Part shown: one piece after another, positions 8,100-10,228 of the stretch
Numbering within the stretch: the first letter of the stretch is position 1
Layout: each line of letters starts with the position of its first letter
Assembly (NCBI GenBank): GCA_963843285.1
Contig: CAWJJO010000012.1
Location: 140,399-204,398, forward strand
Direction of reading: 5' to 3'
From: an uncultured bacterium
GTDB lineage: Bacteria; Acidobacteriota; HRBIN11; JAKEFK01
Length of the DNA: 64,000 nt
Notes under the pieces: generated by a model
The model's input: only the letters and a program-made list of their open reading frames with translations
Databases searched by the model: none
What the model was told of the DNA's origin: nothing
Position numbers and translations under genes: made by a program

Positions 8100-8846
8100 A
8101 TGAAACTGCAACCTAACCCGGCTCCCATTTCAGGAAAAGAGCCTCACTCGCTTTCGATTGTAATGCCTGTGTTTAATGAGCAGGAAGTAATCGCTACGGT
8201 AGTTGCAGAGCTTGCAGAGGTGTTGGAAAAATTTCGAGACCACGAGTTTGTGATTGTAAACGATTGTAGCACCGATCAAACTCTTTCCATTCTTGAATTG
8301 CTTCAGTCCAAATATCCGTATGTTCGTTTGGTGACGTCGCAGCAAAACTGTGGACATGGTCCAACTCTGGCACGCGCTTACCGCGAATCCTCCGGTGAAT
8401 TCATATTTCATACCGATAGCGACCGTCAATTTTTCGCGGAGGATTTCTGGTTACTGTGGCAAAAAATGAAAAACGAGCAGTTGGATCTCGTCATTGGATA
8501 CCGTGAGGATCGCAAAGATCCCTTCGCGCGACTTGTATTCACAAAGCTGGTTCGGGTTTTCTTGCGGTTTCTATTCGGTGTCAATCTCCCGGACAGTAAT
8601 TCCCCATTCAGGTTGTATAACCGGAAGGCGTTGGATCAGTTATTGACTATTCTTCCCGCGGAACCAATGATACCATCGATTCTGATGGTGATTGCAGCAT
8701 ATAGGCAAGGAATGAAAGTGGGCTGGGTTGGTGTTCGTCATTTGGCTCGCAAGACGGGCAAGTCATTTCTTCGTAGTTGGAAGATATTTCGACTTTGCGT
8801 CCCTGCCGTAAAAGAAGTTCTAAGATTTCGACGCTCTTTTGCATGA
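8100..8846 (+). CDS. GT2 glycosyltransferase, DPM1/GtrB-like catalytic domain without TM anchor
   Basis: LSIVMPVFNEQEVI, VNDCSTD, HTDSDRQF, NSPFRLYNR. The ORF track begins at 7995, but the ATG at 8100 (MKLQPN) fits the domain boundary better. The stop overlaps the next gene start (ATGA at 8843-8846). Confidence 0.8.
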   Translation: MKLQPNPAPISGKEPHSLSIVMPVFNEQEVIATVVAELAEVLEKFRDHEFVIVNDCSTDQTLSILELLQSKYPYVRLVTSQQNCGHGPTLARAYRESSGEFIFHTDSDRQFFAEDFWLLWQKMKNEQLDLVIGYREDRKDPFARLVFTKLVRVFLRFLFGVNLPDSNSPFRLYNRKALDQLLTILPAEPMIPSILMVIAAYRQGMKVGWVGVRHLARKTGKSFLRSWKIFRLCVPAVKEVLRFRRSFA

Positions 8847-10228
8847 ATCCCCCGTCATCCAATTCCAAGATTGTGATCATCGGTATGGGCGCCTGCGGAC
8901 TTGGAGCTGCATGGAGGCTGCAGGAGCTCGGCCACGATTCTTTCAAGATTTTTGAAAGGAAACCTTATCCCGGTGGTCTGGCTTCTTCTGTAACAGATAA
9001 GAACGGCTTCACCTGGGACATTGGCGGTCATGTTCAGTTTTCGCATTACAGATACTTTGATGAGTTGATGGATTCGCTCATGGGGGAAGAATGGGTCTAT
9101 CACGAAAGAAGCTCCTGGATTTGGATCAAAGAGCGGTTCGTGCCTTATCCATTCCAAAACAACATCAGATATTTGCCGCGCGAAGACATCTGGAGTTGTC
9201 TATCCGGATTAATCGATTTATATCGGGAGCCGGCCTCCCAACCACACAATTTTCGGGAATGGATTCTCACAGTTTTCGGTAAAGGGATTGGCGAAGCCTT
9301 TATGATCCCTTACAACAAGAAGGTTTGGGCCTATGACCCGGAAAAACTCTCGTATAGCTGGATTGGCGACCGTGTCGCCACGGTCGATTTGGCCAGGATT
9401 TTGAAAAATATTGTATTTGAAAGAGACGACATTTCCTGGGGACCCAATAACCGTTTTCGCTTCCCTCTCAAGGGCGGAACGGGAGAAATTTGGAGAAGGT
9501 TATTTCAGCGTCTGGATTCTCAAAAAACTTTTCTCAATTGCGAATTGGAGGAAGTGAATACACGTAATAAGTACATCATGTTCTCCAATGGACAAAAGGA
9601 GCCTTACGATGTTCTGATCAGCACGATTCCGCTGGATCAACTCATTCTCTTATCAGATTTCAACGACAAGTCATACGCCAAAATGCTCCTGCACTCTTCA
9701 ACGAATATCGTTGGCGTCGGGTTAAAAGGCCAGCCGCCCGAACATCTAAAAACTAAATGCTGGATGTACTTTCCCGAATCCAACTGCCCTTATTACCGGG
9801 TTACCGTGTTCTCAAAATATTCTCCTTGCAATACTCCTGATCCGAACAGGTACTGGTCCTTGATGGCGGAAGTATCCGAATCTTCGGACAAGAAAGTGGA
9901 TCATGAATCGCTTTGCGCTGAGGTAGTGCAAGGAATGTTGCATACAAAATTGATCGAATCGCGAGAGGACATTGTCGACCTTTGGTATCATTTTGAACCC
10001 TACGGTTATCCCACGCCTTCTCTAGAAAGGGACGAGGCTCTGAAGGTGTTGAGAGCATTCGAGGAATGCAGCGTCTATTCGCGCGGCCGTTTTGGCGGTT
10101 GGAAATACGAGGTATCTAACCAGGATCATTCCTTAATGCAGGGTGTGGAGCTCATCAATCGACTCATTCTTCAGGAAAAAGAACTCACACTCTGGAATCC
10201 CCATGTAGCGAACCAGAGTGTTCGTTAG
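8843..10228 (+). CDS. glf: UDP-galactopyranose mutase, eukaryotic-type (FAD-dependent)
   Basis: By eye it matches motif after motif of fungal/protozoan UGM as I recall it. These are [110 protein letters not shown] and [24 protein letters not shown]. The start at MNPPSS (8843) is preferred over the ORF-track 8777. Confidence 0.85.
   Translation: [461 protein letters not shown]

Follow-up and report, generated by a model that had tools for sequence, protein, structure and literature searches.

Within a 64,000-nucleotide stretch of DNA from an uncultured member of the Acidobacteriota (assembly GCA_963843285.1, contig CAWJJO010000012.1, positions 140,399 to 204,398 of the forward strand; the whole stretch is called the window below), two overlapping genes encode a family 2 glycosyltransferase (GT2; 8100-8846) and a UDP-galactopyranose mutase (UGM; 8843-10228). 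We think it probable, from sequence comparisons and gene context, that this GT2-UGM operon both makes and consumes UDP-galactofuranose (UDP-Galf) and that it yields polyprenyl-phospho-galactofuranose (polyprenyl-P-Galf) for use by GT-C glycosyltransferases outside the cytoplasm. A preliminary description of the window had raised the idea of a polyprenyl-phospho-Galf donor for periplasmic GT-C enzymes, and four features of the context argue for it: the group to which the GT2 belongs, the conservation of the pair, the swapping of mutases beside the GT2, and fusions of GT2 relatives to GtrA and GT-C domains.

In the proposed mechanism, the mutase would turn UDP-galactopyranose (UDP-Galp) into UDP-Galf, and the GT2, as a membrane-peripheral enzyme, would transfer Galf from UDP-Galf to polyprenyl (undecaprenyl) phosphate, giving polyprenyl-P-Galf and UDP. 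The lipid-linked sugar would then be flipped across the membrane, by GtrA in relatives and perhaps by a Wzx/MOP protein (2769-4223) here, and one or more GT-C enzymes, with 10459-12063 and the GT87 protein at 12070-13305 as candidates, would place Galf on a glycan of the cell surface, outside the cytoplasm. GT2 enzymes invert, so the lipid donor should be beta-linked; a GT-C enzyme that inverts in its turn would produce alpha-Galf, and the route could thus account for alpha-linked Galf. The UGM equilibrium strongly favors the pyranose form, which makes tight pairing sensible, since a coupled consumer would pull the mutase reaction. In this scheme, which sugar is donated, which lipid accepts it, how the product is flipped and how a GT-C enzyme finally uses it are inferred.

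The gene pair and its products

Both genes lie on the forward strand. The GT2 gene, for a predicted polyprenyl-phosphate galactofuranosyltransferase of 248 residues, starts with the ATG at 8100 and ends with the TGA at 8844-8846; the UGM gene, predicted to supply UDP-Galf, runs from the ATG at 8843-8845 to the stop codon at 10226-10228 and encodes 461 residues. Direct reading of the sequence gives ATGA at 8843-8846, the start/stop overlap noted in the preliminary description, and an identical 4-nucleotide overlap is present at L081, the nearest long relative among the loci that we compared. The overlap indicates that the two genes form an operon, and they are possibly translationally coupled. 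All of the UGM motifs cited earlier occur in the 461-residue translation, and HTDSDRQF and NSPFRLY both occur in that of the GT2.

The mutase belongs to the class known from fungi and protozoa, as had been suggested. Its matches in the PDB (phmmer) are UDP-galactopyranose mutases of Trypanosoma cruzi and Aspergillus fumigatus only, at E = 1.3e-135 for T. cruzi UGM (4dsg; residues 8-457, full length) and 4e-124 for A. fumigatus UGM (3uka); no bacterial Glf structure appears among them at E≤1e-3. The Pfam domains are Amino_oxidase and NAD_binding_8, with no match to GLF (PF03275) at E≤1e-3. Identity is 48% to the T. cruzi enzyme (TcUGM) and 42.5% to the A. fumigatus enzyme (AfUGM), and the similarity takes in the insertions that bacterial Glf lacks. 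Eukaryotic UGMs are 47-60% identical among themselves, and the two UGM classes share 14-18% (PMC3624792). Compared with the eukaryotic enzymes (A. fumigatus, T. cruzi, Leishmania major), the window UGM, at 42-48% identity, thus reaches the lower end of their own range; it falls about 20-50 residues short of the eukaryotic chains with solved structures (484-519 residues) and, unlike them, is encoded in a bacterial genome and operon-coupled to a GT2.

The preliminary description had named the absence of catalytic UGM residues as something that would count against it. By alignment, all 17 of the AfUGM active-site residues checked are kept in the window UGM, as in the eukaryotic enzymes, including the G-G-H63 His loop, R182, R327, W315, Y317, Y419, Y453, and N457. 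Beyond R182, R327, H63, W315, Y453, and N457, the checked positions are ones that we take, from the AfUGM structures, to belong to the active site. The roles of the six residues just named have been described (PMC3322874). Fifteen of the 17 residues in the window protein are invariant across 23 bacterial homologues, the two not confirmed as invariant being F66 and F153. Full-length similarity together with this conserved active site means that the enzyme very probably acts on UDP-Galp, and the product that UGM makes is UDP-Galf.

Describing this mutase as “eukaryotic-type” was right as far as similarity goes, but the class is no eukaryotic peculiarity, being abundant in bacteria. More than 7000 homologues at E≤1e-20 were found in prokaryotic genomes and metagenomes, and a scan in which each GTDB species was represented by a single genome gave at least 593 loci. 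The class is found in Bacteroidota (Cytophagales, Chitinophagales, and Flavobacteriales), Verrucomicrobiota, Acidobacteriota, Sumerlaeota, Armatimonadota, Elusimicrobia, Myxococcota, Nanoarchaeota, and others, where its members carry the annotation “FAD-dependent oxidoreductase,” “amine oxidase,” or “protoporphyrinogen oxidase.” “Eukaryotic type” is therefore a misnomer for a class that is broadly bacterial, and a recent transfer of the gene from a eukaryote is ruled out by the same numbers.

The GT2 matches Pfam Glycos_transf_2 at 1.4e-22, and its best PDB matches as a single sequence are ArnC, GtrB, and DPMS. A profile of its family matches the same three structures (3e-28, 4e-21, and 1.3e-16, respectively) over profile positions 2-223 of 232; other GT2 structures align to the N-terminal nucleotide-binding half only. 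The AF2 (AlphaFold2) model has a predicted local distance difference test score (pLDDT) of 93.3, and every one of the first 23 Foldseek hits is ArnC, GtrB, or DPMS, with query TM-scores of 0.60-0.77 and about 22% identity to ArnC. Chemistry like that of glucosyl-3-phosphoglycerate synthase (GpgS), which appears among the lower Foldseek hits, was considered and rejected: there the profile covers the N-terminal half only, at E of about 1e-5.

Enzymes of the DPM1/GtrB kind move a sugar from a nucleotide sugar to polyprenyl phosphate, and the residues associated with such enzymes are present in the window GT2. The metal/diphosphate motif DxDxQ of the GT-A domain, a suggested hallmark of polyprenyl-phosphate glycosyltransferases (PMC10821137), is here D106-S-D108-R-Q110; in the family, neither D106 nor D108 varies, and conservation of Q110 is at least 90%. 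GtrB binds the phosphate of its acceptor through R122 and R200, with R125 and K132 lying along the juxtamembrane path (PMC4728340). The alignment of the profile to 5ekp places R135, R138, R144, and R217 of the window GT2 on GtrB R122, R125, K132, and R200, respectively. In neither of the two family alignments (A2 and A3) do R135 and R217 vary, and the same is true of R138 and R144 in A2; in A3 the latter two are at least 90% conserved.

The earlier label of DPM1/GtrB-like GT2 thus holds for the whole-length profile, the fold, DxDxQ, and the arginines, but not for the C-terminal membrane helices of GtrB, which the window protein lacks. A transmembrane anchor is present in GtrB, ArnC, and archaeal DPMS and absent from PpgS and human DPM1; it is thus not universal in this group, and an anchorless GT2 is still eligible as a member. 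In the model, helices 142-159 and 226-247 carry four and six K/R residues, respectively, and have a high hydrophobic moment, so that the C terminus is an amphipathic basic helix. Almost all family members are 225-265 residues long. The NCBIfam PpgS model (226 positions) matches the GT2 at 2.2e-12, with 46.9 bits against a cutoff of 370 and hence below it. Sequence and model together place the protein as a membrane-peripheral member of the polyprenyl-phosphate glycosyltransferase group.

Conservation of the pair and exchange of the mutase

Looking for the pair in other genomes had been proposed as a check, and was carried out on the best 80 UGM loci, of which 77 could be evaluated. A full-length GT2 homologue (34-57% identity) lies directly beside the UGM gene on the same strand in 39 of the 77, upstream of it in 36 and downstream in 3; two further loci have a weaker homologue at the same place, which brings the count to 41. 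The route would therefore seem to be common, about half (39-41/77) of the bacterial loci of this UGM class having the pair. These pairs span at least six phyla (among them Bacteroidota, Verrucomicrobiota, Acidobacteriota, Elusimicrobia, and Armatimonadota, with Oligoflexia and others), and they occur in the cultured genera Spirosoma, Fibrella, Fibrisoma, Siphonobacter, Flectobacillus, and Aquirufa, which makes direct tests feasible. At L081 (GCA_022616075.1), the UGM is 73% identical to that of the window, and the neighborhood also corresponds: it has GT87, a GMC oxidoreductase, and a sulfatase-family membrane protein, together with orthologues of the 534-residue protein (10459-12063) and of GT87.

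The GT2 is constant where the mutase is not. Homologues 48-52% identical to the window GT2, closer to it than the Cytophagales ones, are paired with other pyranose-to-furanose mutases, either distant from the UGM or unrelated to it. L166 and L167 have the order GtrA, bacterial Glf (PF03275), GT2; L086 has GT2 followed by Glf; and in L170 an epimerase, a PMT_2 GT-C, the GT2, Glf, and DUF2298 all abut on one strand. L089 (2421-3990) encodes a bacterial-type Glf with a C-terminal GtrA/DPMS_TM domain, so that a single chain joins a mutase to a flippase-like domain, and the GT2 comes next; two open reading frames (ORFs) share the Glf part between them, perhaps because of a frameshift or an assembly error. 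The third mutase type is a protein of the RGP family (PF03214, the UDP-arabinopyranose mutase family), found with the GT2 in L168 (228-2122 of the Patescibacteria metagenome-assembled genome GCA_018895765.1) and in L169 (5125-11432), with match E values of 2e-40 and 3e-43 in L168 and L169, respectively. L169 also has a UDP-glucose dehydrogenase gene and two epimerase/decarboxylase (UXS-like) genes, and TMEM260/PMT_2-type GT-C genes lie near the GT2 and RGP genes in both loci. In a neighbor-joining tree, partners of all three mutase types fall inside the clade of the window GT2. Such nonorthologous replacement of the mutase around a constant GT2 is expected if the GT2 consumes a UDP-furanose. 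The RGP-GT2 loci, in L169 with the dehydrogenase and epimerase genes beside them, make up a putative bacterial pathway to UDP-L-arabinofuranose and from there to a lipid-linked arabinofuranose (Araf) donor.

Members of the GT2 family are also joined to GtrA and GT-C. GtrA adjoins or is fused to family members in L089, L166, L167, L164, and P0331, and more distant relatives without a transmembrane helix stand in GtrA-GT2-GT-C arrays without a mutase. The GT-C genes adjacent to family members in relatives are of the PMT_2 or TMEM260 type. Fusions (P0284, P0191, P0272, and P0331) join the GT2 to a membrane domain of the UbiA prenyltransferase family, to an S-adenosylmethionine (SAM) methyltransferase, to a PMT_2 GT-C, or to GtrA (as GtrA+GT2). 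These links to GtrA and GT-C are expected if the GT2 product is a lipid-linked donor. The UbiA fusion was unexpected, as UbiA-type enzymes make lipid-linked pentoses derived from phosphoribosyl pyrophosphate (PRPP).

The exhaustive search put the GT2 family at 164 clusters at 50% identity (E≤1e-30). A reciprocal metagenome scan with the GT2 profile returned mostly generic polyprenyl-phosphate glycosyltransferases, with about 7 of 80 loci belonging to the true family; it was used for L086 and L089 and not for the frequency estimate. On balance, though by a narrower measure of confidence than for the window pair itself, we favor the view that this is a widespread family of anchorless polyprenyl-phosphate furanosyltransferases that use UDP-furanoses from UGM, Glf, or RGP and make polyprenyl-P-Galf or polyprenyl-P-Araf for GT-C enzymes in many phyla, including Patescibacteria. 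This would propose a function for a family so far annotated only generically and, if true, its products would include, for the first time, a lipid-linked hexofuranose donor and lipid-linked furanose donors made from nucleotide sugars.

In Cytophagales the pair has neighbors of its own. At L012 (7911-9041 and 14288-15778; clusters 2 and 19), it is flanked by an Acyl_transf_3 acyltransferase of the membrane and an MBOAT protein, and after it comes a conserved protein of about 900 residues without a Pfam match. These neighbors suggest an O-acylated, Galf-containing glycan.

Evidence against the proposed route and other explanations

Several observations weigh against the route proposed here. No transmembrane helix was found in the GT2, either in the AF2 model or by hydropathy, whereas GtrB and ArnC have them. 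L085, L087, and L163 contain family members with no mutase in the DNA available, and at roughly half of the loci of the eukaryote-type UGM, conventional GT2 or GT4 genes stand in place of this GT2. Polytopic neighbors occur at 21 of 41 pair loci versus 9 of 39 nonpair loci, a modest excess by a crude measure. All-versus-all clustering and phmmer revealed no one conserved GT-C partner family beside the pair; small groups of neighbors do recur (L029/L061, L169_628 with L057_610, L170 with the L169 PMT_2, and L074 with L029), and the large membrane neighbors of pairs mostly have no Pfam match. The GT-C fold matches of the 534-residue candidate (10459-12063) are weak (E values of 2.8e-3 to 4.4e-2 and TM-scores of 0.30-0.45). 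No GtrA-like ORF was detected in the window by single-seed jackhmmer and a scan of small membrane ORFs. Finally, UDP-Galf probably has ordinary cytoplasmic users too, alongside the proposed route: the window encodes, as a possible user of this kind, a conventional GT2 of 295 residues (56834-57721, forward strand), 51% identical to the product of L081 11397-12284, whose PDB matches are mostly to the N-terminal half and include none of ArnC, GtrB, or DPMS, and in L081 this orthologue sits directly after the UGM gene, an arrangement from which such coexistence follows as probable.

The GT2 of the pair could itself be an ordinary cytoplasmic galactofuranosyltransferase acting on a lipid-PP-oligosaccharide or other acceptor, as GlfT1/GlfT2 and WbbI do, with GtrA and GT-C serving other sugars. 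The bacterial Galf transferases known to date act in the cytoplasm with UDP-Galf as donor, and several are GT2 enzymes (PMC11294581); gene adjacency alone is silent on the acceptor, and the lack of a membrane anchor would suit such an enzyme. Against this, only polyprenyl-phosphate glycosyltransferases match the acceptor half of this GT2, in which both phosphate-binding arginines are invariant. Moreover, in L170, L166, and L164 the family member is the sole gene resembling a polyprenyl-phosphate glycosyltransferase beside GT-C or GtrA and is thus the only visible source of a donor for them, and GtrA+GT2 and GT2+GT-C fusions exist. We regard this explanation as unlikely. We see marginally slimmer prospects for a GT2 that makes a polyprenyl-P pyranose (Glc or Galp), with the operon shared for the sake of one glycan and UDP-Galf used by conventional glycosyltransferases such as the orthologue of 56834-57721. 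The position of that orthologue right after UGM in L081, the family members without a nearby mutase, and the half of UGM loci without this GT2 are all in its favor. What speaks against it is that three mutase families swap within one GT2 clade (at least 48% identity) while the GT2 remains directly adjacent and often overlapping, a pattern that makes little sense unless the mutase product is what the GT2 uses; in addition, L170 has a GT-C but no other glycosyltransferase.

Polyprenyl-P-Galf might also be the product and yet serve as a primer, on which a glycan is built in the cytoplasm before GT-C transfers it whole. GlcNAc-P-C55 made by the GtrB-like WpsA of Lactococcus has been suggested to prime pellicle polysaccharide (PMC10821137), and the window has many cytoplasmic GT2/GT4 genes as well as a Wzx-like flippase. 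The GtrA-type partners of the relatives are, however, typical of single-sugar donor systems, and no additional cytoplasmic glycosyltransferase is encoded in minimal operons such as that of L170, so we consider a primer role very improbable. Our preference remains for polyprenyl-P-Galf as a donor from which GT-C enzymes take the single sugar outside the cytoplasm.

Surrounding genes and comparison with known systems

The window is a very large glycan-assembly region. It has at least nine GT-C-like genes (four GT87, three PMT_2-like, one Mannosyl_trans4-like, and the 534-residue ORF) and several membrane proteins of 500-680 residues without annotation. With so many GT-C genes, a second polyprenyl-phosphate glycosyltransferase, and a Wzx-like flippase, there should be ample demand for lipid-linked sugar donors. 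The gene at 10459-12063 (reverse strand) converges on the pair, which thus seems to be a self-contained two-gene unit. The 230-nucleotide spacer between this gene and UGM holds a nested inverted-repeat element of about 218 nucleotides (10234-10451), single copy within the window, with 32-nucleotide outer arms (10234-10265 and 10420-10451, 81% complementary) and GC-rich 17-nucleotide inner arms (10295-10311 and 10355-10371, 94% complementary). A search of the element against Rfam gave no match, and a scan of 7900-10500 for promoter and terminator consensus sequences gave none exceeding shuffled expectation. The element may be a bidirectional terminator that closes the GT2-UGM unit; alternatively, it could be a small palindromic insertion.

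The polytopic membrane protein encoded at 10459-12063 (534 residues, GT-C-like) is the first candidate user of lipid-linked Galf. It has eight homologues, no Pfam match, an invariant D40-D41-W42 after the first transmembrane segment, and KE and LPNHAYRYY motifs, and its orthologue lies close to GT2-UGM in L081. The top 10 Foldseek hits of its AF2 model (pLDDT 72.8, predicted TM-score [pTM] 0.80) are all GT-C proteins (Pmt4, ALG9, PglB, DPY19, and STT3). The assignment of the membrane neighbors to GT-C rests on motifs, a few PMT_2/TMEM260 matches, and this one model of moderate quality. A second candidate user is the GT87 GT-C glycosyltransferase at 12070-13305 (reverse strand; Pfam GT87, 5e-8), with an orthologue at L081 1651-2961 and full-length paralogues in the window at 18144-19349 (reverse), 19524-20783 (forward), and 40647-41900 (reverse). 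The GT-C-like protein of 509 residues at 20805-22334 (reverse; Pfam Mannosyl_trans4, 1.6e-6) is weakly similar (1e-5) to a membrane protein that abuts GT2-UGM in L074. Further GT-C candidates, all with PMT_2 matches, are encoded on the reverse strand at 31038-32546, 50941-52422, and 54861-56651.

The second polyprenyl-phosphate glycosyltransferase (6716-7975, reverse strand, divergent from the pair) has 419 residues, C-terminal transmembrane segments, and four transmembrane-like hydrophobic windows. It matches ArnC in the PDB at 1.3e-21 over residues 15-319, as well as DPMS and GtrB, and NCBIfam AglJ at 6e-37, and it probably makes a different lipid-linked sugar. The sole flippase candidate near the pair is the Wzx/MOP-type protein at 2769-4223 (reverse; Pfam Polysacc_synt, 1.3e-15). 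Two further GT2 genes in divergent orientation, 59315-60250 (reverse) and 60305-61219 (forward), encoding 311 and 304 residues, cluster with the GT2 family at E<1e-15, and one of the two products has two C-terminal transmembrane-like segments. Polyprenyl-P-sugar synthases encoded in the window may therefore number four.

Other genes of the region were noted in passing. Four GMC-family FAD oxidoreductase genes (13320-14942, forward; 47400-48920, 48920-50434, and 57748-59322, reverse) are interleaved with the GT87 and PMT_2-like genes, and a GMC gene likewise stands beside GT87 in L081 (40-1551); by analogy with DprE1, which acts on decaprenyl-P-ribose, these enzymes might oxidize or epimerize lipid-linked sugars. 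Four genes encode membrane-anchored sulfatase-family proteins resembling LtaS/EptA (23978-25999, reverse; 26650-28557, forward; 34057-35886 and 35935-37761, reverse), relatives of which are found beside a transmembrane-less GT2 in L165 (6808-8787) and just upstream of GT2-UGM in L081 (7070-9112), a hint at transfer of phospho-substituents onto the same glycan. A DUF362 gene (4291-5334, forward) overlaps by 4 nucleotides the gene for an amine-oxidase-like flavoprotein (5331-6638, forward; NCBIfam PRK07233, 6e-141), a distant relative of the UGM superfamily models, and these two genes converge with the glycosyltransferase gene at 6716-7975.

To our knowledge, all characterized galactofuranosyltransferases use UDP-Galf directly, in the cytoplasm or the Golgi, and Galf is, as far as we know, absent from humans and hence a drug and diagnostic target. 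If our reading is true, polyprenyl-P-Galf would be a new metabolite and would give Galf a second, extracytoplasmic route. We found no report of polyprenyl- or dolichyl-monophosphate-linked Galf in full-text searches, whose coverage of journals is incomplete, so that an existing report is possible; strings of the form “Galf-P” proved to be “Galf-PS” or unrelated.

Among the closest known counterparts are the Gtr systems (GtrA/GtrB/GtrC of Shigella and Salmonella O antigens and CsbB/GtcA/YfhO of Gram-positive teichoic acids), in which GtrA is the flippase, GtrB makes UndP-glucose (UndP, undecaprenyl phosphate), and GtrC is the GT-C. As in these, the window GT2 has DxDxQ and the equivalents of R122 and R200, a UDP-sugar as predicted donor, and relatives encoded with or fused to GtrA and GT-C. 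Unlike in these, it lacks the two C-terminal transmembrane helices and the beta-hairpin of GtrB, no GtrA gene was found in the window, and the enzyme is coupled to a pyranose-to-furanose mutase, so that the predicted sugar is a furanose and not pyranose Glc or Gal. In the aminoarabinose pathway of lipid A, ArnC, which the GT2 matches best in both structure and sequence, supplies UndP-Ara4FN to the GT-C ArnT; in contrast to the window enzyme, to which it is about 22% identical, ArnC has transmembrane helices and uses UDP-Ara4FN. Mycobacterial PpgS (Rv3631), a short polyprenyl-phosphate glycosyltransferase without a transmembrane helix, works with a small GtrA-like membrane protein (Rv3632) and a GT-C (Rv3779). 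The window GT2 resembles PpgS at the family level only and is not its orthologue, and PpgS handles a pyranose, GalNAc, and has no mutase partner.

Lipid-linked furanose donors are known that arise by another chemistry. Decaprenyl-phospho-arabinofuranose (DPA) of mycobacteria is made from PRPP through decaprenyl-P-ribose and epimerization by DprE1/DprE2, with no nucleotide sugar and no GT2, and the Galf of mycobacteria is transferred from UDP-Galf by GlfT1/GlfT2 within the cytoplasm. DPA is, like the donor proposed here, a polyprenyl-monophosphate furanose, and it is the periplasmic donor of several GT-C arabinofuranosyltransferases (Emb/Aft); the window too is rich in GT-C genes, including mycobacterial-type GT87. 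The nearest published system, the three-component pentofuranose pathway of Citrobacter youngae O1/O2, uses a UbiA-like phosphoribose synthase and a phosphatase to produce undecaprenyl-phosphate-linked ribofuranose (UndP-Ribf) from PRPP (Kelly et al. 2024, PMC11127046); the authors report no similarity of the synthase to GtrB-type enzymes, the flippase is of the MATE/MOP type and the GT-C belongs to GT136, and Galf, hexofuranose, and UDP-Ara are absent from that paper (PMC11127046). The likeness lies in a lipid-phosphate furanose donor, a flippase, and a GT-C that adds the furanose outside the cytoplasm; the difference is that the Citrobacter donor derives from PRPP, whereas that of the window would derive from a nucleotide sugar through a GtrB-type GT2. 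These comparisons support a view of the proposed system as Gtr-type three-component glycosylation with a nucleotide-sugar-derived furanose and a predicted new metabolite. If this is true, lipid-linked furanose donors for GT-C enzymes would extend from PRPP-derived pentoses (DPA and UndP-Ribf) to furanoses derived from nucleotide sugars, and bacterial homologues of plant UDP-arabinopyranose mutase would have a part in this scheme as well.

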